Positions 9,521 to 56,921 of a DNA stretch of 64,000 nucleotides are shown in pieces; the stretch's first letter is position 1, and each line of letters begins with the position of its first letter. Source of the stretch: Chiloscyllium plagiosum (lineage: Eukaryota); assembly GCF_004010195.1 (NCBI RefSeq), contig NC_057719.1, forward strand, positions 29,240,822 through 29,304,821, given 5' to 3'. The translations under genes were made by a program, and so were the position numbers. A model generated the notes under the pieces. That model had not been told where the DNA came from, ran no database searches, and saw only the letters and a list, made by a program, of their open reading frames with translations.

Positions 9521-9610
9521 AGTTCTGAAGAAGTCATTGGACTCAAAATGTTAACTTTGCTTTCTGTCCCCAGATGCTGTCAGATCTGCTGAGTTTATTG
9601 AGCAATTTAT
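9521..9610 (+). mobile_element. Penelope-related short element fragment with degenerate hammerhead core
   Basis: AGTT-CTGAAGA-A-GTC(attg)GAC-tcAAAA-TG-TT-AACT then ...cagatgctg.cagatctgctgag; related to 51635-51866. Confidence 0.5.
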
Positions 9611-9945
9611 GTAGTAATCCGGAGACTCGGGCAAATGCTCCGGTTTCAAATGCCACCTTGGTTTTTGGAAATCTGGAATAAAAAGCTAGCTTAGTAGCAA
9701 CCATGTAACCGTTGTTAATTGTTGTAAAAGCCCAACTGATTCACTTGCCTTTAGGGAAGGATGTTTTGCTTGTCATCCTTCTCTGGTCTTCCTTACATGT
9801 GACTCCAGTCCCACAGGTTGACTCTTAACTGTCCTCTCGAATGGTCTTAACAAGCTAGTCAGTTCAAGTGACAATTAAAGTTGGGCAATAAATGCTGGCC
9901 AACCAGTGATGCCCACATCCCATGAACAAATGTAGGGAAAAAAAT
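9611..9945 (+). mobile_element. SINE sharing its 3' tail with the old CR1-clade LINE
   Basis: Core ...cctttagggaagg...acatgtgactccag...gttgactcttaactg; tail gggcaataaatgctggcc...gatgcccacatcccatg then A-rich end; second copy at 16975-17245 (-). Confidence 0.7.
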
Positions 9946-31545: not shown

Positions 31546-32353
31546 TAAGTATTTTCAATGCTTGTTGTAATTCAAGATTCTGGATATTTTGTGGCATCTA
31601 CTAATGTGGATAAAATGTTAATAAATTAAATCGTAGTTAATAATTTAATACAGTTAAAGTTCTCTATGAACTATGAAATGTATAAAATAATTTAAAAAGT
31701 TTGCATAAGAGTTCTTCAGCAGTAGAATTTTTAAAATATATGTAAAACAACAAATTTTATTGGATATGCTTCTGCCTAAAGCAATCTGTGGAATAATTTT
31801 AATAGTACTGAGGACCAATTCATCCTTTTCACCAATCTGTATAAAATGAAGATTAGATTTTTGTTGTACTGCAAATGATTGAATCGTTTAGCTGGGAAAT
31901 GCACTAATGGGTTTACATAGGTGATTGGATTTTGCTATCTGTTCAATGAAGATCATATTGTGCTATTAAGCCAACCTTTCACAGAGGGGCTGCTAAGAAA
32001 TAAACTGAAAATGAATTGCTTTTGTTGCATCGACATACTCAATTGTCACGAAAAAGGCGAACTGCACCTTGGGACAAGCATTGTAAGGCAAATTTATAAT
32101 TAGTTTAAATTGAGGAAAACACATTCTGCTCCAAACCCCAAATAGCTTATTGAATGAGAATGGCAAACTAAAGAATATTGCATCCTGAATTTGTGCATGC
32201 AAATGATTGCAAGGCAGAAATCTTCAAACACGATTCAGTTTGATGATGTGCTGTATTAAATTTTGCATAATCTGGAGGTCATCGAAGGTAAATGAGGGAC
32301 AGGAGATAACTCAACTCAATAATTGAGTCTGGAATGACGGTAGATTTTAATAG

Positions 32354-32565
32354 TCAAAAAATGTGGTGCTGGAAAAGCAAAGCAGGTCAGGCAGCATCCG
32401 GGGAGCAGGAGAGTTGATGTCTCGGGCATAAGCCCTTCATCAGGAATGGGCTTATGCCCAAAACATGACTCTCCTGCTCCTTGGATGCTGCCTGACCTGC
32501 TGTACTTTTCCAGCATCACACTTTTTGACTCTGATCTCCAGATCTGCAGGCCTCACTTTCTCCTA
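32354..32565. mobile_element. Hairpin Penelope-related non-autonomous element (family B) with 14-bp TSD
   Basis: Inverted arms around gcccttcatcaggaatgggc; GTAGATTTTAATAG at 32340-32353 and 32566-32579. Confidence 0.85.
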
Positions 32566-33408: not shown

Positions 33409-34528
33409 GTCAGAGGCACAGCTGCTGCAGGAAGGAAGGCAGTGGTGTGTTCCCCAAGGTTAGTGCAGGGGTCTGGCTGGGTGGGGCAGGGACTGGGCTC
33501 AGAGACTCCCGGGCCAGGTGTTGCAGGGCTAGGACCAGGCAGTGATGTCCCAGGGGTTTCTGTAATGGGGCGGGGGCTGGACGTGGGGTCAGGGGCACGG
33601 CAGAGCAGGGATCAGTTATGGATTCGGGGGGTTGGGGTCAGGGTTCCTGTGCCAGGGTGACTCTGGCACAGCCACAGGGGCATTGTCGTGCCAGGGTGGG
33701 GCGTGTTGAGGGTCTATTTTGGGCGAAGATGATGGGGTAGTCTCCATGGGGGCGGGTTTGGCACGTTGGGTTTTCTTTTGTGCCTTCTGTCTGGCCGCAT
33801 GCTCACCCCCTCCCTGCCAGAGGCCGAGGCACTAGGAGCCTCTGGCTTAACCCCTGCTGCTGGAGCTTGTGGTGTTGACTTCGGGGGAGGGGGAGTAGGT
33901 GTGGTGGCGCCACACTCAGCCATTGTCGTGGGCTAAGCCTTCTGGGTAGGGCAGTTCTTTCTTATTTGCCCCACCTCATGGCACAGGTGACACCACATGC
34001 CATCCAGAAGATGCGGTAGGCCACGCCCTCGTGGAGGAGGGTAAATGAGCCTTACGTGACCTCCTCCCGGGCTAGGCAAATGAACACCTGGTGTCGGAAG
34101 GAGTATATATGCCAGAGGGCAGGTTCCTTCAGACCGAGTAGGAGCAGTTGGACACCTGACCGGATTTCCCCAGAGTTTGAAGGTGGGGGAGAAGGGGCTC
34201 ACTGACAATGAAGGGCGGGACATTGGAAATCACAGCCCTCTGGGCCGTGACCTCCAAAGGGTTGACGGGTAAGTGTGTCCCGCCCACAGTGAGCCCCCTC
34301 TCCCTGACTAGGTGGACTGCCTGCTCGGTCCTGAGGAAAAATACGGCCTTCCCATATTTTCTGGCTGCAGCAACATGGCTAGTGGGCTGACCACATTAGC
34401 CATGGCCTTACTGCAGCTCTCAATGGTCATGTTCGGGTGGGAGTAGGCCTTGACCCCCAGACGTTTAGTCAAGTGCCTGAAGGGGTCGGGGTTGCAGCGG
34501 GGGCTGTAGCAGCCAAGCCTAAGGCAGC

Positions 34529-34643
34529 TGAAAAATCTGTTGATGAAAAAGCGCAGCAGGTCAGGCAGCATCCAAGGAGCAGGAGAGTCGACATTTACAT
34601 ATTTTTCAGCTCTGATCTCCAGCATCTGCAGTCCTCACTTTCT
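34529..34643. mobile_element. Family B short element inserted in Tx1 ORF1, 16-bp flanking repeat
   Basis: CCAAGCCTAAGGCAGC at 34513-34528 and 34644-34659; body matches 32354-32565. Confidence 0.85.
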
Positions 34644-34952
34644 CCAAGCCTAAGGCAGCGGTCACCCCAGCATAGGTGCGACTGGGGCTTGCTTTTTTGG
34701 GGCTCACCATGCTGTGCTGTTGGGTGTTAATGGAGTAGGCCCCAGGAAACAGCTGTAGCTTTGAGTCCACGTGGGGTCCCAGGCAGCAGCAGCAGTGGAA
34801 GCAGGTCTCTGGTTGCAGAAGTGGAGGTCTTGGAAGAGGCCCAAGGCAAGTGCCAGGCAGCAGTAGTGGAGACAGGCCTCAAGTAGCAGCAGGTAGGGTC
34901 CAGGGACCAGCAATTGGAGTGGGCCCCAGGCAGCAGCAACACACCCTTTTTT

Positions 34953-35377: not shown

Positions 35378-35877
35378 NNNNNNNNNNNNNNNNNNNNNNN
35401 NNNNNNNNNNNNNNNNNNNNNNNNNNNNNNNNNNNNNNNNNNNNNNNNNNNNNNNNNNNNNNNNNNNNNNNNNNNNNNNNNNNNNNNNNNNNNNNNNNNN
35501 NNNNNNNNNNNNNNNNNNNNNNNNNNNNNNNNNNNNNNNNNNNNNNNNNNNNNNNNNNNNNNNNNNNNNNNNNNNNNNNNNNNNNNNNNNNNNNNNNNNN
35601 NNNNNNNNNNNNNNNNNNNNNNNNNNNNNNNNNNNNNNNNNNNNNNNNNNNNNNNNNNNNNNNNNNNNNNNNNNNNNNNNNNNNNNNNNNNNNNNNNNNN
35701 NNNNNNNNNNNNNNNNNNNNNNNNNNNNNNNNNNNNNNNNNNNNNNNNNNNNNNNNNNNNNNNNNNNNNNNNNNNNNNNNNNNNNNNNNNNNNNNNNNNN
35801 NNNNNNNNNNNNNNNNNNNNNNNNNNNNNNNNNNNNNNNNNNNNNNNNNNNNNNNNNNNNNNNNNNNNNNNNNNNNN
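35378..35877. other. Assembly gap (500 N)
   Basis: Run of exactly 500 n; true size unknown. Confidence 0.99.
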
Positions 35878-36205
35878 ATTGAAAAATATTAAATGCTGAG
35901 GTATCTTGAACTGGAGGATGTGGAAGGGATGTTTCCTTTCGTGGGCGAATTTAAAACTAAGTCAACCATTTAAGGCAGAGATGAAGATTTTTCCTTTCTC
36001 ATAGAGAGTTGTGAGTTTTTAGAATTCCCTTCATCAAAAGGCAGTAGATGCAAAATCTTTAAGTATATTTAAGGCAGAGGTAGAAAGCTTTTTAATTACG
36101 AGGGAATTGAAAAATATTGGAGGTATGCAGCAATGAAGAATTGAGGTTAAAAAAAGATCATCCTTGAATTTTATTAAGAGGCAGAGCAGGCTTGAAGGCT
36201 GAGTG
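35878..36205 (+). mobile_element. Degraded CR1 3' end
   Basis: gatgtggaagggatgtttcct...gagttgtgagt....ggaattcc...tatttaaggcagaggtaga. Confidence 0.65.
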
Positions 36206-36684
36206 ACCATAAGACATAGGAACTCAAATTAGGCCATTCAACTCATTGAGTCTACTGTGCCATTCCACCATGGCGGATATGTTTCTCAACCCCATTCTCC
36301 CACTTTCTCCCCATAACCCTTGATCCCCTTGATATTCATGAACCTATCTATCTCAGTCTTAAATATATTCAATGACACGGCCTCCACAGCCTTCTGTGGT
36401 AATGAATTCCATATATTCACCGCTCTCTGGCTGAAGATGTTTCTCCTTATCTCTGTTCTAAAAGGTCTTCCCTTTACTTTAAGACTGTGCCCTCGGATCC
36501 TAGTCTCTCCTACTAATCTTAGAATCCCTAGTGTGGAAACAGGCCCGTCAACTCAACAATTCCACACCGACCCTCTGAAGAGTCACCCATCCAGACCCAT
36601 TCCCCTACTCTATTACTCTACATTTACCCCTGACTAATGCACCTAACCCCCACATCCCTGAACACCATGGCCAATTTATCATAG

Positions 36685-36807
36685 GAGAAAGTGAGGACTG
36701 CAGATGCTGGAGGTCGGAGCTGAAAATGTGTTGCTGAAATGCGCAGCAGGTCAGGCAGCATCCAAGGAGCTAAAGAATCGACGTTTCGGGCATGAGCCCT
36801 TCTTCAG
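36685..36807 (-). mobile_element. Family B short element nested in HE1, 12-bp TSD
   Basis: AATTTATCATAG at 36673-36684 and 36808-36819. Confidence 0.88.
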
Positions 36808-36811
36808 AATT
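36776..36811 (-). ncRNA. Minimal type I hammerhead ribozyme motif (Penelope-type), apparently intact
   Basis: Minus strand AAUU-CUGAAGA-A-GGGC(UCAU)GCCC-GAAA-CG-UC|GAUU: full core, 4-bp GC stem II, palindromic ACGU, stem I AAUU/GAUU. Confidence 0.65.
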
Positions 36812-39800
36812 TATCATAGCCAATTCACCTAATCTGCACATCTTTGGACAGTGGAAGGAAACCAAAGCGCCTGGAAGAAACCCACGCAGACACGCGGAAA
36901 ATGTGCAAACTCCACACAGACAGTCGCCTGAGGCTGGCATTGAACCCAGGTCCCTTGCGCTGTGAGGCAGCAGTGCTAACTACTGATCCATCGTGCTGTC
37001 CCAAAACGTCTTCACAATATCTACTCTGTCCAGGCCATTAAGTATTCTGTTCATTCCTTCTAAACTCCATTGAGACCCAGTGTCCTCAAATGTTCCTCAT
37101 ATGTTAAGCTTTTCATTCCTGGGGCCATTCTTGTAAACCTCCTCTGAACATATTCCAGGGCCAGTACATCCTTCCTGAGATATGGGGCCCAAAACTGCAC
37201 ACAATACTCCAAATATGATCTGACCAGAGCTATATAGAGCCTCAGAAATACATCTCTGCTTTTATATGCAAGTCCTCTCAAAATAAATGCCATCATAGCA
37301 TTTGCCTTCCTTACTACTGACTCAACCTGAAAGTTTCCCTTTAGAGAATCCTGGACTAGAACTCCCAAATCTCTTTGCACTTCAGACTTCTGAATTTTCT
37401 TCCCATTTAAAAAATAGTCCGTGCTTCTATTCTTTCTACCAAAGTGCATGATCTCACATTTTGTCACGTTGTACTCCATTTGCCACTTCCTCACCCATTC
37501 TCTTCTGTCCAAATCCTTCTGCAGCCTTCCCACCTCCTCAATGCTACCTGTCTCTCTACCTATCTTTGTATCATCTGCAAGGTCAGCCAGAATGCCCTCA
37601 GTTCCTTTATCTAGATCGTTAATGTATAAAGTGAAATGTTGTGGTTCCAACACTGAGCCTTGCATTTGTCACCAGCTGCCATCCTGAGAAAGACCCTTTT
37701 ATCCATACTCTCTGCTTTCTGCCAGACAGCCAAGCATCTATCAATGCTTGTACCTTGCTTTTGAAACCATGGGCCCTTACTTTACTCAGTAGCCTCCCAT
37801 GTAGCACCTTGTCAAAGGCCTTCTTGAAGTTCAGGTAGATAACATGAATTGGCTCTCCTTGGTCCAACCTGCTGATTACTTCCTCAAAGAATTCTAGCAG
37901 ATTTGTCAGGCATGGCCTCCCCTTGATGAAACCGTGCTGATCTTTTGCCCTATTTTACCATATACTTCCAAGTATTCAGAAATCTCATCCTTCACAATGG
38001 ATTCTAGGATCTTACCCATGACAGAGGTTAGGCTAAATGGTCTGTAATTTTCTGTCTTTTACCTTATTCCTTTTTTGCATAGGGGTGTTATCTATTTTGA
38101 TGACTGCCTCGTAAGGATTCCTTCACCTTGAGCTCCCTTAATCAAGTCTGCCTCATTACATAACACTAAATCCAGTATTGCCTGTTCCCTAGTCCTCTCC
38201 ACCACAGGCTGCTCCAAAAAGCCATTACACATGCTCCACAAAGCTCCATAGACATTCCACTTACTCATTTTCTTGCAATCCACTACCAATCTGATTTTCC
38301 CAGTCCAACTGTGTATTGAAACCCCTCATGATCACTGTAACTTTGTCTTTCCTACACATCCTTTCTATCTTCTGGTGTATCTTGCACCCCAGCTCCTGAC
38401 TATTTTTTAGAGGCCTGTACATAACTCCAACGATAGATTTTTTTTTACCTTCGCAGTTCCTCAATTATACCCACACAGATTCTACACCATCTGACTCTAA
38501 TTCATTTCTTACAATTAATTTTAATTTTGTTCCTTGTTCATATGTTGATAAGGATGTGGAAACACTTAAAAATAAATAGGGTCTGTGTTTCCTGACTGTT
38601 ATTGCTTCCATTGTTAACTAAATCTATTTTAAAAGTGATAATGATTTACTTTAAAAACCTTTAGCATAACAACCTTACATCCTAATGCATCACCCCAGAG
38701 GTACAGTAAACAATAACGTCACCTGACCAATCTCATTCTGAAAGTTGAAAATGAATTTGAGATGCTGTTAATGAGTGGGCAAAATTTTGGCTCTACTATA
38801 GATCCAAACTAAAAAAAAGCTTCATTTGGAAATTTGACTACAGTAGCATTACACTATTACACTTTTAAGTATATAAAACAATTTTCTGTGGTTTTGTCAG
38901 TGACCTTTTAAACAGATGATATAGTTTTTGATTCAGGTCTTTTCATTTATCTGTACTTTCGATATCATTGATTCTCCTGCAACAACTACAAGTATGCCCA
39001 TATTTGTGTACATTAAGTTACTATCTTCACAATAATGACATATAACTGATTATAGTCCTAAGATATTGGTGAAAAAAATCTTTGCTATTAATAAATTCAT
39101 TTTAATGTTTATTGTTCAGTGTACAAAGTTTATTTGATCTGCTGTTATCATTAACTGTTTTTATAAAAGTTACGCCACTTAAATAAGCTGCTTATCTGCA
39201 TTAATAAACACCATAAAAATTGTATAATGTGTATTGATAGAATTAAAATGCGGAGATTTGTTAGTAAATGTACATTATACTGAAGCAACATTTGAAATTA
39301 TACCCTAATACTCATTTAAATTAAATCTCAGATAAATAATTAATATAGAAGACTGGCAACAGCTGATTTGTCATAGTTGCTTCTTGGTCATGTTTTATAT
39401 TTGATGGCACGAGAGATGACATGAGTCAAAAACAATCAAAGTCCTCATTCCTGGTGGAGAGACCTTGCCCTAATATTCTGTGACTCACACCCAGGTTGTT
39501 CTCAGCTCTACTGCTCTGCTTCCAGACACATCACTTACAGTGAATCTGATGTGAACAACTTGCTGAGAAATTGCCTCATGGCATGTTGCTTCCCTGACCC
39601 AGTACCTTGCCCATTTGAGTAGGGTTTGATTTAAAGAGTGCATGATGCTCTTTTCTGGTGAGCTGTTTAACCCTGCAGCCTTTACAATACTAAAGTTGAA
39701 TTTTGTGAATTGTCATTATGGCTGTAAAGCAGCTTACTGAAACGATTAAATCCAGAAGTAAGGGATGCTGCCTACTATTAATCTAGTCAGCTATTTGTGA

Positions 39801-42654
39801 TTTGTTTTGAAATCACTTAATTGAGTTAGAGCATTGCCACCTGTTATCCACTAAATGTGAATAACCTGTACATTACACACACAGCTGGTTAAATTAAAGC
39901 TACAGTAAACTTAAAAATCAGAAGCAAGCTTTGTGTATCTGATGTGACCTTAATATTTGTGTGATTTCAGACTCTTACTGGTTTCATTTTACTTAATTTA
40001 GATGTTTGATATTCAGTTGTTTATTTCACAAATAGTCAAATTATCTATTAATGCAACCTAAATGCACTTCTGCAGTCTAAATAGCAGTAGTTAATAGCTT
40101 TGCTGCTGAAAATTAATTTGAAATTATTCAGTGATTCTATTTTGAATTAAGAACTTATTCATAAAATAAATTCACTATATAAGAGAGAATTATTACTTCC
40201 ACTGCTATTTTCTGGGACGTGATTTTATATATATTGGTGTATTTTACTAAACTTAAGGAAACTTAAGGAATAAATGCCTTGCTCATCTTTTATTGAGTTT
40301 GTCACTCTCTACTCCATCCACTGTACATTTCCTTTTGAAACTGAACTCTATTCCAAGTACTACAGTAGTTCTATTAATCAAAACAACATGTTAACAGAAC
40401 TAAAATACAGGTAAACAAAAATGTTTAATATCATCACAAGATGTAATAGAAGTATTACATCTGTCTTCATAATCATTTAGGCTTATGCTTTTTATTTAGC
40501 TATATTGATTTATTGATATTAAGGGTACCAGAGAATTTAATGCCTTCAATATGTAAAGTTAAACATAATTAATAAAAAGTGAATCTCTAGCATAATAGTG
40601 GTCTTTAATATATGTGGACTTAATAAAATAATGCTACTTTCTTTCAGTGAACATTCAAGCAGGTAATGTAGTTACAGCAAATATACTGCCAGCTTTTCTT
40701 TTCTCAACTTCCATCTAATTAAGTCATTTTCTTTTAGTTACTATCACATATAATTTGGACCTGGTCCTGATTTATACCACCCGATTCAGACATCAGATAA
40801 CTATCAGAAGTCATGATATTTGTGAATTTAATTCAAATTAGTTACAATACCGTAGGGAAGGAATTTCTGGAGTGTATATAGGATGGTTTTCTGAACCAAT
40901 ATGTCAAGGAACCAACTAGTGAACAAGCTGTTGTAGACAGAGTATTATGAAATGAGAAAGCAATGTTGTGAGACATTCCTTAGGGATGAGCAACCATAAT
41001 GTGACAGAACTCTTTGCCAAGATAGAGAGTGAGATTATTGATACTGAGGCCAGGGTCTTGAATCTTAATAAGGGAATCTATGATGATATGAGGCATGAGT
41101 TAGCTATGATGGATTGTGAAATATTATTTAAAGGAATAACAGTGGCTATGCAATGGCAAAGTTTCAAAGAGCAAATAGGTGAAATATAAAAATGGTTTAT
41201 TACTGGCTGGTGTAAGAGTGCAAAGAGAACAATGGTTATACCATGACTTCTGAGTGATATTAGAGATGTTATTAGATGCAAAAAACACATTGGCAAGAAT
41301 AAACAACAGACTCAAGGATTCGGACCAGTTTCGAAGTCAGCAAGGTAAGACCAAGGGATTGATTAAGAAGGAGAAAATAGGGTACAAGAATAAGATTGCA
41401 TTGAACACAAGAACTGACTGTAAAAGTTTCTTCCGGTACACAGAGAAAAAGATTGGTGAAAACTAATAAAGTTCCCTTACAATAAGAAATGGGGGAACTT
41501 ATAATGGTGAACTAAATTCAGACTTTGCTTTGTCTTCACAAAGAAAGACACAAATATGGTACAAGAAATGATGAGGAACACAGGGTTTAGTGAGTAGGAG
41601 AAACTGAAGCAAGTCTGTATTCGGGGAGAAATGATATTGGAGAAATTGACAGGATTCAAGGCTAGTAAATCCTGAGCGCCTGATAATCTACATTCCAAAG
41701 CACAAGAGGATTTCAAAATAGTGGATTGGAGGATAGCTAATGTAACCCCATTATTTAACAAGGGAGTTGGAGAGAAAACCTGGAATTATAGTCCAGTGAG
41801 ACTGATGTTGGCATTGGGAAAGTTGCTAGAGTCCATTATCAAAGATGCTATAGCAGAGTACTTAGAAAACAATAGTAGAGTCAGACTGTCAGCATAGATT
41901 TAGAGTGAACCATGCTTGACAAATCTATTGGAATTCTTCAAGGATGTGACAAGTACAGTTGATCAAGGGATCCAATGGTTTATTTGGACTTTCAGAAGGC
42001 TTTTGACAAAGTCCAATTTCAGAGATTATTGTGTAAAACTAAAGCGAATGGACTGGGGTGTGGGGTGTGGGCGGGGGGCAGTGTATTGTGATTGATACAA
42101 AATTGATTAGTGGACAGGAAATTAAAAGTTCTCCTGAATGGCAGGCAGTGACTAATGGGGTAACGCAGGGATCAGTGTTAGAAACCCAGCTAGTCATAAT
42201 ACATATAATGATTTTGATGAGGGAACTATATATAACATCACAAAATTTGGTGATGACAATACTGGGTGGAAGGGTGAGCCATAATGAGAATAGAGATGTT
42301 GCTGTCTGATATGGACAGGCTAAGTGATTGGGCAAATGCATATCAGATGCATTATAATGCAAATAAATGTGAGGTTATCAACTTTGGTAGTAAAAATAAG
42401 AAGGCAGATTATTATTTAAATGGCTGTAGAATTGAAAGAAGGAATGTTCAATGAGATCTGGGTGTCCTCATGCACCAGTTGCCAAAAGTAAGCACACAGG
42501 TGCAGCAGGTAGAAAATAAGGCAAACTGTCTGTTGGCCTTCATAGCAAAAGGATTTGACTACAGGAACAAAGATGTCTTGCTGCAATTAAACAGAGTATT
42601 GGTGGGATCACATCTGGAATATTGTGAACAGATTTTGTCTCCTTACCTGAGGAA

Positions 42655-42759: not shown

Positions 42760-42817
42760 CCTTATCTGAGGAAGGATGTTCTTTCTATAGAAGGTTTAAC
42801 AAATTGATTCCTGGGAT

Positions 42818-43087
42818 AGCAATGTTGTGAGACATTCCTTAGGGATGAGCAACCATAATGTGACAGAACTCTTTGCCAAGATAGAGAGTGAGATTATTGA
42901 TACTGAGACCAGGGTCTTGAATCTTAATAAGGGAATCTATGATGATATGAGGTATCAGTTAGCTATGATGGATTGTGAAATATTATTGAAAGGAATAACA
43001 GTGGCTATGCAATGGCAAAGTTTCAAAGAGCAAATAGGTGAAATACAAAAATGGTTTATTACTGGCTGGTGTAAGAATGCAAAGAGA
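42818..43087 (+). repeat. 270-bp near-identical copy of 40959-41228
   Basis: Offset 1859 bp; 6 mismatches counted by eye. Confidence 0.95.
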
Positions 43088-45164: not shown

Positions 45165-48100
45165 AAAGGCATTGGCATAAGGACAGCTGGGTTACAGTCA
45201 GGTGAGGGAAAGGGAACTGACGGTCAGAGCAGGGATCCCCTGTGGCTGTTCCCTTCAGCAATAAGTATACCATTTTGGATACTGCTGGTGGGGACAGCCT
45301 ACCAGGGGTAAGCCATAGTTGTCAGGTCTTTGGCACTGTGGCTCAGAAGGGAAGGAGGAAAATAGAAAAGCGCTAGTAGTAGGGGACTCAATAGTTAGAT
45401 GGATTGACAGGAGATTTTGTGGTCAGGAATGGGACTCCCGGAAGGCATGTTGCCTCCCCGGTGCCAGGGTCCAGGATGTCACCGATCGGGTTTACAAGGT
45501 TCTGAAGGGAGGAGGGTGAGCACCCAGAAATCGTGGTACATATTGGCACCAATGATATAGCCAGGAAAGGGATTGAGGATCTGAAAAGTGACTACAGAGA
45601 GTTAGGTTGGAAGCTGAAGAGCCGGACAAGTAGTGATCTCAGGGTTATTACCGGTGCCGCGAGATAGTGAGATGAGGAACAGTCAGCGAATGCAGCTTAA
45701 CACGTAGCTGCAAGGCTAGTGCAGGAGGGAGGGCTTCAGATACCTAGACCATTGGGATACCTTCTGGGGAAGGTGGGACCTGTACGTGAAGGACGGGTTG
45801 CACCTGAACTGGAGGGCACAAATGTCCTGGTGGGAGATTTGCTCATGTGATTCGGGACGGTAAAAACTAGTTTGGCATGGGGGTGGGAATCAGAGCCACA
45901 TGTCTGAGTGGGGGCCAGTTGCAGTCGGGACAGTGACAGGATGTATTAAATCTATCAGGAAGGTATCTCATGCGTTGAAACAAAGGGATCGGTCAAAGTG
46001 TGTCTGCTTTAATGCAAGGAGTGTCCGAAATAAGAGTGACGAACTTAGAGCATGGATCAGTACTTGGGGCTACGATGTTGTGGCCATAACGGAGATGTGG
46101 GTTCCACAGGTGCAGGAATGGTTGCTTGATATTCCAGGGTTTAGAATGTTTAAAAAGAACAGGGAGGGTGGAAAGAGAGGAGGGGGTGTAGCATTGCTAA
46201 TCAGAGAGTGCATCACAGCTACAGAAACGAAGGTTGTTGAGGAAGGTTTGTCTATTGAGTCAGTATGGGTGGAAGTTAGGAACAGCAAGGGAACAGCCAC
46301 TGCATTGGAGGTTTTCTACAGACCATCTAATAGCAGTAGAGAGATTGAAGATCTCATAGGCAGCCAGATTCTGGAAGAATGCAGAAGTAGCACGGTTGTT
46401 GTTATGGGTGATTTCAACTTTCCCGATATCGACTGGAACCTCCTAAGTGCAGATGGTTTGGATGGAGCCATTTTTGTCAGGTGTGTTCAGGAGGGGTTCC
46501 TTACTCAGTATCTAGACAGACCGACGAGGGGAGATGCCATTTTGGATTTAGTGCTCAGCAATGAGCCAGGACAGGTGTCAGATCTCACGGTGGGAGAGCA
46601 CTTTGGTGAAAGTGATCACAACTGCCTCACATTTAGCGTACCCTTGGAGTGGGAAAGGAGCAGTTACCAAGGGAAGATATTTAATTGGGGAAATGGAAAT
46701 TATGACGTTATCAGACAGGAGTTGGGAAGTATAGACTGGGGGCAATTGTTTCACAGAAAGGGCACAGCAGACATGTGGAGACTATTTAAGGATAGATTGT
46801 TGCAAGTGATGCACAAATTTGTTCCTCTGAGGCAGGTAAGACGGGGCAAGCTTAAGGAACCTTGGATGACAAGAACAGAATTTCTTGTCAAAAGGAAGAA
46901 GGCCGCTTACGTAAGATGGAGGAAGCAAGGATCTAGCACAGCTTTTGAGGATTACAGGTTTGCTAGAAAGGAGCTCAGAAATGGACTGAGAAGAGCCAGG
47001 AGGGGGCACAAAAAAAGCTTGGCAAGAAGGATTATGGAGAACCCAAAGGCATATTACTCATATGTGAGGAATAAGAGAATGATCTGGGAGAAGGTAGGGC
47101 TGATCAGGGATAGCGGAGGGAACTTGTGCGTGGAGTCTGAGCAGACAGGGGAAGCCCTAAATGAGTTTTTTGCTTCGGTTTTCACCAAGGAAAGGGACCT
47201 TGTTGTGAATGAGAACTTAGAGGAGCTGGGATACAGTCTTGACCAGATCAAGATTGATGAAGTTGATGTGCTAGAAATTTTGGAAAACATTAAGCCCCCA
47301 GGGCCAGACCAGATTTATCCTAGGCTGCTCTGGGAAGCGAGAAAGGAGGTTGCTAAGCCACAAGCAAGGATATTTGCCTCCTTCCTCTCCACACAAGTCG
47401 TACCAGAGGATTGGAAGGAGGCGAATGTTGTTCCTCTTTTCAAGAAGGGTAATAGGGAAATCCCTGGCAATTACAGGCCAGTCAGTCTTACATCTGTGGT
47501 CAGCAAAGTTTTGGAAAGAATTATGAGGGATAGGATTTATGACTATTTGGCAAAACATAGTGTGATTAAAAGCAGTCAGCATGGCTTTGAGAGGGGCAGG
47601 TCATGCCTCACAAATCTTATTGAGTTCTTTGAAGAGGTGTCAAGTCAGGTCGATGATGGTCGAGCAGTGGATGTGGTGGATATGGACTTCAGCAAGCATT
47701 TGATAAGGTTCCCCATGGTAGGCTCATTCATAAAGTCAGGAAGTATGGGATACAGGGAGATTTGGCGACCTGGATTCAGAATTGGCTGGCTGACAGAAGG
47801 CAGAGAGTGGTTGTGGATGGAAAGTATTCTGCCTGGAGATCAGTGTTGAATGGGGTCCCACAGGGCTCTGTTCTTGGGTCTCTGCTCTTTGTAGTTTTTG
47901 TAAGTGACTTGGATGAGGTTGAGGGGTGGGTTAGTAAATTTGCAGATGACACAAAGGTTGGAGGTGTCGTCGATAGTATAAAGGGCTACAGTAGGCTGCA
48001 GCACAACATAGACAGGATGCAGAGCTAGGCTGAAAAATGACAGTTGGAGTTCAACCTGGATTAATGCAATGTGATGCATTTTGGAAGGTCGAACTCAAAT

Positions 48101-51550: not shown

Positions 51551-51634
51551 CCTGTGCCCAAACAATCCCTTCCTTTGTTTCATTTCAGGAGAAAGCATCT
51601 GACAATAAGGAAAAGAAAGCCAAGAAAGGTAGAG

Positions 51635-51866
51635 AAGTCAAAAATAGAAATCGCTGAAAAGCTCAGCAGCTCTGACAGCATCTGTGGGGAGAAATCTGAG
51701 TTAACATTTGAGATCAAGTGACCCTCAGATCAGAAGGAAGGGTTAGTCGACCAAAACGTTAACTTTGATTTCTCTCCACAGATACTGTCAGAGCTGCTGA
51801 GCTGTTCCAGCAATTTTTATTTTTGTCTCTGAATTACAGCATTTGCAGTTCTTTCAGTTTTTATAC
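51635..51866. mobile_element. Hairpin Penelope-related element (older variant)
   Basis: Inverted arms ctcagcagctctgacagcatctgtgg / ccacagatactgtcagagctgctgag; AGGTAGA on both flanks. Confidence 0.7.
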
Positions 51867-52239
51867 AGGTAGACGGGTACCTGACATTTGTCTCCTCAAG
51901 GACAGAGTCCATGCCTTTGTGGTAGAGGATCTGGATAATTAATGTGGTGATGTCATGCCTCGCATATCCTGGTAACCAACTAGGACTCATTGTTAAGTGC
52001 TATGCTGTCTTTCTGTTCATATGCTGTCATGTCTACCCCTATTTTACAATCATTTTCTCTCTTATCTCCTGAGCATCTACTCAGTCTCTACCATGAAGAA
52101 ACATGTGCTACTTCACCTCTGAAGTTCAAGCTACAGATCTTTTAGAGGAAGCTATCTGTTGAATCCACGACCACCTCAGATACTAGTATCTAAGTGGGAA
52201 TGTTACCTTGATTAGAGTTGATAGTGCACTTTAGTAAAG

Positions 52240-52326
52240 AACTTATGCTCAAAACGTCAACTCTCCTGCTCCTCGGATGCTGCCTGACCAGCTGTGCTTT
52301 TCCAGGACCACACGTTTTGACTCTGA
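52240..52326 (+). mobile_element. Family B short element fragment
   Basis: aaacgtcaactctcctgctcctcggatgctgcctgacc matches 32460-32530. Confidence 0.75.
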
Positions 52327-55300
52327 GCACATCATTATCATGTCTTCACAGCTAACCACTGGAGAATGTCCCATGTCACTGGGACACAGTGGACTGCCAG
52401 AGACCAGGAACCCAGGCATATGCCATCATGTTGGCAAACTGATTTGAAAGGTGAGGAGTCCACTAATGCTCTCTTTCCTGTAATAAAAATAGAAAGAGCT
52501 GGAGAAATTGAATGGATGTCACAACATTTGTGGAGAAAGAAACTGATTTAATGTTTTGGCTCCCATGAGTCCTCTTTGGAGCTTTACATTTCTGCAAAAA
52601 AAAAACCCAGATATGACCATCTCGAGGAGACATCATATGGCTCTTGTTGGCCCTTATGAAAGAACTTGCTTCATCACAAATATGCTAATATTGGGCACAG
52701 TGTTCCGATCACCATCTTGAAACCTAGTGCCACTGACACATTTTCTTCTTCATGTCGCTCCCTGGAAGTGGTGTGATTCTCTGCCATTTTTGCCTCATCA
52801 TGAAGGTACCTTTGGTTCGAAACTCTGATATGAGCCTGCTCTACATCTTCTGAAGGTTGTTGTTGGTACTGGGCATCTAGATGTGTGTATTTTTCATCCA
52901 TTCATGTGAATGCTCTTAGTGACCTTAACCTCTGTGTCTGGATCCATTGAAGATGGTTCCAATGAGCCTATGTGAGCAATAACAAAAACAAAGCAGCTCT
53001 TCAATAAAGTGATCACTGAGCAGTCACAGCTCACATAATTAAGATTTGAACAGCATCATCAAAACATTAGGCTATGGATGCTTTCATAGGGAGAGCAATG
53101 GGATGATTCTACCTGCACATCACTGACTTGAATCAGATATAATCTGGGGAAGCAATGTAGCATGCATGTAACCAAAGGCAATGTTCTTGTGTAACCTCCC
53201 GTTACACAAGAAAGGCAATGTTGCATTTTATAGTTCAAGAGTGAAGTAAGCAGCACCAGCATCTTGTGTGAGCTACAGAACCTTGGAAGGAGATTGTAAC
53301 TTTCGCAGCTAAGGGGAATCTTTACAGCTCACTTGACATTACTTGCCTTTCACAACCATTAGTAGTAAATCTGTGAATGTTGAATGGTGTGTTCAGGATT
53401 GCTTGTGGCCAAGGATGTTTAATTGACACATAAGTTAATGCATGAGGTGCACATACATGATTTAAGCAGTAACAAAAATCTTTACCTGTAGTGTGTGAGT
53501 GCCTGTTTAATACTATTGTCTGCTGAAGGACCCCACATTGCACAAAAGTGAAATCTACTTCTTTAGGGGAACAAAACACTGTCTTCATCTATACTTGGTG
53601 TGGTGGCTGTCATTTTCTATTTCAATTGCACACTTGTGATTTGGATGAGGATGGAAGGCAACATTTTTATGTGAGTCACAGGCTCAGCCTCTCAATGTAG
53701 GTTACCTCCCCCTTGAACCTGAATCTCTCTTTCTGATTTATTGACCCCAATCCTCCCCATGTTCCCACCCAACATTTTTATTTCACTGCTCATCGTTTCC
53801 ATTTTACCTCCTGAGTCCTGACATTTAGATTAGTTATGCCAAACATGCACTAACCCCTGCCCCAACCTCCAACAAAACTAGTGCAGTGTGACTGCTAATG
53901 ATAACTACTCCACAGTACTTCTCACTGTCTCATGCTCTATCATCTCCCATGCTTGAATCTCCTCCCTTCACAATTACTATACTTTCTTCAATCCAGCCTA
54001 AATCCCCACATTTGACTTCTATGGTATCTCCAGCACAACACTGGCCCTAGATAACTCTCCTTGACTTTCTGACTGATCTCCCTGACGAATTTGAAAGTAA
54101 TGATTGATGCCTGGCCATACCTTTGACTGATCCCTGTGCATCTTCCTGACTGCCACCACTAAGCCCCCTATTGGTGGCACTGGACCTACAGGATCAGCCA
54201 TGGTCCACTCCCTGGGTAGGAGTGTTACAGAGCCCTTGATTCTGATTGGCCCAAGTGTCCAAATGACTATTTGCAAGCACTTTAACTGAGATTGAACATA
54301 CTGTGCTGGTACTTCTGACTGAAGATAATGTCCCTTGGCTCAACTGAGGACCACTCCCCTTCGATTTTGAGATGACTATTTGGTTGAAGCACATTGTGTG
54401 TTTGAAACGTAAGTTTGCAGTGACATTAATGTAACAAAGTGCCATTCGGTGATATGTCCACTCTATTTACCGATCACTGCTGACAACTATGATAAGCTTT
54501 GTCTCTTTGTGAATGCGCAACAGAAGTACTGTGACGTTATAAATTCTGAATGAGATCATAGTGCAAAAAGGCAAGACAGAGTTGCTGACAGAATCCAAGT
54601 AGGTGCAAGGTGTGTGAGCAATAAGAGCAAACTTTGAGCCCTGAGTTGCATACTGGTCCAACCAGGAGATGAGTGCCTGTATCTGTGCAAAGTGTCCTGG
54701 GAGAAGGATTAAAATATAAGGTCATCATGCTTCAAACTCCAATGCAAAAGCAGTTAACTGCATTTTAACTGAATCAGATATGTACCATGATGACACCTAT
54801 GGACAAGAATGTAGGCAATTGCTGCTCGTGGAGTATATCCTGAGATGCGGGGAATGTTGACCAAGATGGGGACCCAGAAGAGCAACTGGCAAGCTGGAGC
54901 AGCCAGGGACCTGCTCTGACCACCATGTTGGGAATTTTTGCCATTTAGTTTTGCTTTGTTACATGGGAAAATAGTGATGACATATACGGAAAAAAGGTAA
55001 TAATAAATGCAGGAAATTAGGTCGCTTGCCTCTCATTAACAACATTGCTGACTCACCATTAAAACCACAGGTGAAAAACTGGACTTTTCTTTCTCAATTT
55101 CACTTCACTACAACTTCCCAAATGACATGGCATGGTCAGTGTTGTTCAGGGTCTGAGAGAATTGAGTTCATAATCTCTAAAGTAAAAAACACTAAAAATT
55201 CCAGGATTAAACTTATTTCCAAGATCTAAAATTATAAAGATGTTTATTTCATACATCTATGATCACATAGTATTGCTTGAAATAATGGCTAACTCTCTGA

Positions 55301-56623: not shown

Positions 56624-56921
56624 CAAAAGGGAGGACTGCAGATGCTGAAAACCAGAGTTTAGATTAGAGTAGATTGACAGTAGGTCAGCCTACAATCTAA
56701 AGAGTCAAGAGTGTGGTGCTGTAAAAGCACAGCAGGTCAGGCAGCATCTGAGGAGCAGGAGAATCGACATTTCAGGCAAAAGCCTGATGAAGGGCTTTTG
56801 CCTGAAACATCGATTCTCCTGCTCCTCGGATGCTGCCTGACCTGCTGTGCTTTTCCAGCACCACACTCTTGACTCTAATCTCCAGCATCTGCAGTCCTAC
56901 AATTCTGCAGTCCTACTTTCA
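56624..56921. mobile_element. Two adjacent family B insertions, each with its own TSD
   Basis: GATTGACAGTAGG at 56611-56623 and 56672-56684; CCTACAAT(C/T)TAAAGAGTC at 56689-56706 and 56922-56939; hairpin with CTGATGA-A-GGGC-TTTT-GCCT-GAAA-CA-TC at 56784-56811. Confidence 0.85.

Follow-up and report, generated by a model that had tools for sequence, protein, structure and literature searches.

The question raised by this locus is whether a hammerhead ribozyme motif found intact in the genome of Chiloscyllium plagiosum is a working ribozyme or a passenger of the element that carried it there. The motif lies on the minus strand of a short insert within a 64,000-nucleotide stretch of contig NC_057719.1 (assembly GCF_004010195.1, positions 29,240,822 to 29,304,821). 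This whole stretch is called the window here, and all coordinates are counted from its first letter. A preliminary description had read the insert as a short retroelement and had proposed that this copy could self-cleave. The analysis presented here reads the insert as most likely the young, 5'-truncated end of a hammerhead-bearing Penelope-like element (PLE). It was probably inserted into a short interspersed nuclear element (SINE) through target-primed reverse transcription, and the intact motif would have been inherited as a passenger, with no cleavage predicted for this copy by itself.

The insert measures 123 bp (36685-36807) and is flanked by perfect 12-bp direct repeats, AATTTATCATAG, at 36673-36684 and 36808-36819, which cannot be extended. 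The homologous 12-mer is single in three other SINE copies of the window (at about 35082, 49345 and 50857), which shows that the target was duplicated on insertion and that the SINE contributed the AAUU serving as the 5' strand of helix I. A strict count would put the duplication at 9–12 bp, as its first three bases (CTA, minus strand) match the element's own continuation in the copy at 32444. The sequence to the right of the insert is colinear with the same three SINE copies, and the SINE itself interrupts a long interspersed nuclear element (LINE): the arm ends, 36513 and 37013, correspond to 6204 and 6202, neighbouring positions in a LINE copy of the window that has no interruption. The perfect duplication, the double nesting and the target origin of the helix I strand had all been proposed in the preliminary description and were borne out. 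We take the LINE to be a CR1 element and the SINE, presumably, to be of the HE1 type. HE1 is a tRNA-derived SINE of elasmobranchs (PMC2911107).

Read on the minus strand, 36811-36776 gives AAUU CUGAAGA A GGGC UCAU GCCC GAAA CG UC GAUU, letter by letter as first reported. The core boxes CUGANGA and GAAA, with the UH cleavage site, are all intact, and the cut predicted after C17 falls between 36780 and 36779, the position given earlier. Helix III is absent, positions 15.2–16.2 being palindromic (ACGU, 36784-36781), and helix I consists of 4 bp, one of them G-U. The motif fits the PLE minimal hammerhead consensus, CUGANGAH-G..C-GAAA-palindrome-UH (PMC4209133, Fig. S3), including the extra base after A9, the G10.1-C11.1 pair and the palindrome; the original assignment to the PLE-type minimal type I hammerheads, with every core base intact, is thus upheld. 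Since the insert begins at C3, the focal copy lacks the native helix I 5' strand, which the SINE-derived AAUU replaces. The sister copy at 32443 suggests that the native upstream sequence is AUUC, an uncertain reading, as that arm abuts its inverted partner; if it is right, the ATT of the target might also resemble a junction microhomology. An ATG in loop II of the focal copy is followed by a stop after seven codons and is shared by only some sister copies; in the PLE of the anole, an ATG in loop II stands at the start of the open reading frame (ORF).

A profile built from seven window copies was searched over the window with nhmmer. Eleven copies were found, the focal one included: seven of the focal family (family 1), three of a second family and one of a third. 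With two tail pieces added, their share of the window comes to about 1.8%. Three family-1 insertions, and one of the second family, are head-to-head inverted pairs; the focal copy is solo, without an inverted partner. In each family-1 pair, one arm stops at about ...GACT or ...CAGCT and the other runs on, an extension that in the focal copy amounts to 33 nt and constitutes an optional tail: of eight family-1 ends compared, four carry it and four stop before it, and one further insert consists of tail only. Target duplications are 12 bp for the focal copy and 14 and 16 bp at two sister insertions, and none is clear at the copy at 52234. The pair at 34526-34645 belongs, by eye, to the subfamily closest to the focal copy. 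In the plus arm of the pair at 56700-56898, C11.1 is changed to U, the palindrome is broken and helix I is reduced to 1 bp.

The 48-bp tail-only insert at 56624-56671 is bounded by direct repeats of 13 bp (56611, 56672) and closely neighbours the pair at 56700-56898 on its left side. The second family comprises a copy at 9521-9612 (+) and an inverted pair at 51648-51850, with the same core, a different helix II and CG/UU at the cleavage site. It has in common with the focal family a downstream GATGCTG..GA.CTGCTG block, and its GAAA box is broken in all three copies. A decayed copy at 52499-52572 (-) is the likely representative of the third related family (nhmmer E 0.002).

These insertions resemble those of PLEs described in other animals. 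PLE tails of 30–40 bp, beside an inverted truncated copy, have been reported (PMC8557442), and rotifer PLEs have 8–10 bp duplications, inverted pseudo-long terminal repeats (pLTRs) and a 31-bp tail (PMC3846280). Most PLE minimal hammerheads are single and dispersed, and probably derive from truncated PLEs (PMC4209133). The insert is better read as such a truncated PLE end than as a separate family of short retroelements. By this account, the GIY-YIG endonuclease of the element would have nicked the AT-rich site, reverse transcription would have begun at the end of the tail, perhaps primed on 3 nt of microhomology, and copying would have stopped at C3; joining to the target AATT would then have left a 4-bp helix I partly of SINE sequence. 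In the master element, the motif would most likely work as a dimeric or protein-assisted ribozyme on a tandem precursor RNA.

The 5' ends of the copies bear on the best-surviving alternative, in which the 123-bp unit is full-length and not randomly truncated: a non-autonomous PLE derivative (a retrozyme-like monomer or mini-element) would have been copied as an entire RNA, from a template that starts at the front edge of the hammerhead. By eye, the 11 copies reach at most about 4–5 nt beyond C3 on its upstream side, and the starting points of most fall between −4 and about +9, as would suit such a unit, and monomeric non-LTR retrozymes derived from pLTRs have been described, one chondrichthyan genome included (bioRxiv 10.64898/2026.07.22.740005). 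However, none of the 11 begins at the cleavage site (+28), unlike a cleaved unit, the starts of other pieces lie near +21 or in the tail region, the focal site has no tandem arrangement, and inverted pairs with an optional tail are ordinary features of PLE insertions. A full-length unit is therefore considered unlikely. Cleavage does not make the 5' ends of the copies; as the source of the focal insert's own 5' end it was ruled out, since all of the motif's upstream half is present in the insert. That the 5' ends cluster as they do may reflect either a template RNA that starts at the motif or a reverse transcriptase (RT) that stops at it.

The truncated PLE end appears to be recent. The observed/expected ratio of CpG is 0.62 in the focal copy, 0.0–0.34 in four other copies of the family and 0.23 in the window, and this value together with the perfect duplication makes the focal copy look young. 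Among the ten other copies, CUGANGA is kept in three, GAAA in two, both with UH in one and the complete motif in none; G12 is a G in only three. Most losses affect the motif's three CpG sites. Where a family-1 copy retains the full block (two cases), identity to the focal copy is 27/32 and 26/32 over the motif and 26/27 and 24/27 downstream. The preferential conservation of the core that had been anticipated is thus not seen among the window copies and, because the downstream sequence is conserved at least as well as the motif, inserted copies appear to decay neutrally, in what is a small sample. The focal motif would be intact through youth and would decay at its CpG sites like its neighbours. 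Decay of inserted copies does not count against selection in the master element. The covariation score on the 11 window copies was 0.225, with 2 of 500 shuffles as high and 0.127 for the best slid control; pairs with two-sided changes were not above shuffles (183/500), and several of the aligned 5' arms are junction, not native, sequence.

Regarding cleavage, the predicted probability of the hammerhead fold in the monomer is 0.018, 0.003, 0.0008, 0.015 and 0.0009 in contexts of 36, 50, 101, 166 and 476 nt, respectively. The core (36807-36800) is predicted to be trapped in an 8-bp helix with 36770-36777, at a probability of 0.7–0.98 in three of the four contexts long enough to contain it. Bases 36773-36771 within this strand differ from all six other family-1 copies, and two of these three private bases improve the complementarity to the core, CUGAAGAA; a subfamily variant, or a change templated by the hairpin, might account for them. 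A dimer forming two hammerheads is predicted at −11.5 to −12.9 kcal/mol, versus −22.4 to −47.7 for the best dimers, and would be 5–23 kcal/mol less stable than two free monomers. The nearest same-strand partners downstream, at 2.2 and 4.4 kb, are damaged and offer mismatched trans sites of −1.7 and +2.7 kcal/mol. Published minimal hammerheads behave in keeping with this: that of Schistosoma mansoni did not cleave alone and cleaved at a low level as dimers (PMC4209133), the anole PLE hammerhead needed the protein of the element for cleavage (PMC11167929), and of nine Xenopus dimers one cleaved and eight did not (bioRxiv 10.64898/2026.07.22.740005). Because lone minimal hammerheads are inert in the literature, the core is predicted to be trapped and the nearest partners are damaged, cleavage is doubtful, and the focal copy probably does not cleave itself, contrary to what had first been proposed.

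Several points weigh against a truncated, non-cleaving PLE end. A PLE ORF (RT plus GIY-YIG) was not recognised among the 36 stop-to-stop window frames of at least 120 aa read by eye, four of which were also scanned against Pfam, so that the assignment to PLEs rests on architecture and motif and not on homology to a coding element. A target-derived helix I of 4 bp is a mild coincidence, as it is offered by 3.5% of the 4-mers in the window (3 bp by 6.8%), although an endonuclease favouring ATT would raise the share of targets that complete the helix. The trapping helix reaches a probability of only about 0.2 in the 166-nt context, and most of the core is buried in the predictions for two sister copies too. 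Moreover, the predictions were made without an active natural hammerhead as a control, and minimal hammerheads in general may be scored too unfavourably by the energy model.

A second alternative is that the focal copy is active in vivo, cleaving in trans or with a PLE protein when a transcript from the SINE promoter, or a read-through transcript, provides it with its target-completed helix I. The core bases, helix II, the palindrome and the 4-bp helix I are all intact, and partners may abound, given the share of the window that the families occupy. SINE motifs resembling an A box (36990-36980) and a B box (36946-36936) lie upstream of the hammerhead on the same strand, so transcription of the insert from them is possible, but a T4 run between the B box and the insert may end RNA polymerase III (Pol III) transcription before it. 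The trapped core, the unfavourable dimer and the poor trans sites argue against activity, as do the inert lone minimal hammerheads of PMC4209133 and, for the anole PLE, the finding that no RNA-seq read ends lie at its site (PMC11167929). In vivo activity of the focal copy is thus very unlikely. Just as unlikely is a broader scheme of target-completed ribozymes, in which copies stop at the front edge of the core, the endonuclease favours ATT, and the host target supplies the helix I strand, rebuilding working hammerheads at many thousands of sites, the focal one being driven by the Pol III promoter of the SINE.

The motif itself was also compared with chance expectation. The bare pattern CUGANGA..GAAA occurs eight times in the window against 5.46 expected and is not enriched. 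A full descriptor (helix I of at least 3 bp, helix II of at least 4 bp, GAAA-NN-UH) has one match in the window, the focal site, and none in 300 dinucleotide shuffles. Without helix I, the descriptor (helix II of at least 4 bp, GAAA-NN-UH) matches twice, at the focal site and at 56784; 13 of the 300 shuffles contain one such match and none contains two. Rfam, searched over 35500-38000, returned four matches at E up to 10, none of them a hammerhead. Despite this last result and the lack of enrichment, a chance look-alike in an unrelated repeat is so improbable as to be negligible, given the shuffles, the consensus features that lie outside any descriptor (extra base after A9, G10.1-C11.1, palindrome) and a second window family with a different helix I (AGUU/AACU, 4 bp, at 9521) round the same core.

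Table 1. Coordinates of the insert, its hammerhead motif, the nested host elements and related copies in the window (dot, no single strand).
Feature	Position	Strand	Remark
Insert, likely 5'-truncated PLE end (pLTR plus tail)	36685..36807	-	Starts exactly at C3 of the hammerhead core
Left copy of the target-site duplication, AATTTATCATAG	36673..36684	+	Single in three other SINE copies
Right copy of the target-site duplication, 12 bp	36808..36819	+	
Target-derived 5' strand of helix I, AAUU	36808..36811	-	Pairs U-G, U-A, A-U, A-U with 36779-36776
Core CUGAAGA and extra A before helix II	36800..36807	-	Fits consensus CUGANGAH (PMC4209133, Fig. S3)
Helix II, GGGC-UCAU-GCCC, closing pair G10.1-C11.1	36788..36799	-	Predicted pair probabilities 0.96-1.0
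GAAA box, palindromic CG, UC end of cleavage triplet	36780..36787	-	ACGU would form helix III in a dimer
Strand predicted to pair with the core, UUCUUUAG	36770..36777	-	8 bp; fold prediction
3' extension of 33 nt (tail)	36685..36717	-	Inverted pairs in the window carry it on a single arm
Host SINE, likely tRNA-derived	36514..37012	-	Comparison with SINE copies in the window
3' arm of the LINE, on the left of the SINE	36200..36513	-	Mapped to uninterrupted LINE copy
LINE arm right of the SINE, with RT-domain frame	37013..37668	-	Scattered matches on to about 38050
Head-to-head inverted pair	32352..32565	.	Tail on one arm; 14-bp duplication (32340, 32566); cores broken
Short inverted pair	34526..34645	.	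Tail on one arm; 16-bp direct repeat (34513, 34644), includes microhomology
Family copy, truncated	52234..52326	+	G12 to A
Inverted pair	56700..56898	.	Plus arm keeps CUGANGA, GAAA and UC

Among the neighbouring features (Table 1), the RT frame in the LINE arm right of the SINE gave a weak RVT_1 match (E 2e-4, below the Pfam cut-off) and is 71% identical over 129 residues to another LINE frame in the window. A more complete LINE frame at 45864-47849 (+) is open over 661 aa and has APE and RT domain matches; this LINE is a fairly young copy. A crude exon scan returned six candidates and no convincing host gene. A purine-rich segment of 40 nt at 51589-51628 (+), which the scan did not pick up, is flanked, by eye, by a pyrimidine tract with CAG at its end and by a GT; it is possibly a small exon of a plus-strand host gene and would read EKASDNKEKKAKK. 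Some 800 bp to the left of the insert lies an assembly gap of 500 N (35378-35877), with a (CTT/CTCCTT)n tract before it, and a 276-bp direct duplication with 97% identity occupies 40953-41228 and 42812-43087.

Searches beyond the window added little. A 20-nt form of the motif hit 17 metagenome and nine prokaryote-genome loci, but in all 26 the BLAST match covers only 20–30 nt around the motif and none matches the window at E 1e-5, and they were set aside as chance; a 22-nt degenerate form had no match in metagenome contigs or in viral contigs. In a sequencing-run index, 20 of the 24 listed runs hold part of the stretch and two hold at least half of its words; no RNA run is listed, which makes the index uninformative on expression. 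No description of this family was found in the literature on sharks and other cartilaginous fish that was searched, which leaves out most subscription journals and Repbase.

Both the motif and the type of insertion were already known, having been described between 2013 and 2024 (the minimal hammerhead kind in 2014), and the focal copy adds one well-preserved example. As it most likely stands, it matters little beyond its use as a clean young specimen in which both junctions can be read. It would matter more if target sequence systematically completes helix I, or if the PLE template truly starts where the 5' ends cluster, because what PLE hammerheads contribute to retrotransposition has yet to be settled (PMC8557442, PMC11167929).

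Compared with known systems, the motif is closest to the minimal hammerheads in the pLTRs of metazoan PLEs (PMC4209133), with which it shares CUGANGA, the extra base, a helix II closed by G-C, GAAA, a 2-nt palindrome, UH and a short helix I. Helix II has 4 bp in the focal copy versus 7–8 bp in S. mansoni; several rows of Fig. S3 of that work are similar to the focal copy, and the Acropora row has the same GGGC-led 4-bp helix II and CG UC. The part of the alignment covered has no shark row. Unlike those hammerheads, the focal one starts at C3 and takes the 5' strand of its helix I from the host SINE. A loose precedent for acting across an element-target junction is found in the hepatitis delta virus-like ribozymes of R2, which cleave in the upstream 28S target (PMC3774820); these are, however, of a different ribozyme class, with a fixed target and demonstrated cleavage, and the focal case is a single junction read from sequence. 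With the non-LTR retrozymes (bioRxiv 10.64898/2026.07.22.740005) the insert shares its non-coding nature, the relation to pLTRs and a type I hammerhead, and dispersed monomers are described there as well, but it falls outside the definition of an active retrozyme, being a single unit with one motif and no tandem, and with no other complete motif in the 64 kb. Unlike described PLE units, the focal copy has no attached ORF by which to place it in a clade such as Poseidon or Neptune; the duplications of 12–16 bp are somewhat longer than the 8–10 bp of rotifer PLEs (PMC3846280). The 5' truncation, the optional 33-nt tail, the inverted pairs and the target duplications are those of endonuclease-positive PLE units (PMC3846280, PMC8557442). 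In the anole PLE (PMC11167929), the endonuclease prefers ATT, the tail is defined by two start sites of reverse transcription that lie downstream of the hammerhead, and insertion in vitro does not require the ribozyme. The insert is like that element in its AT-rich target ending in ATT (here AATT) and in the distance of about 95 nt from the cut site downstream to its 3' end.

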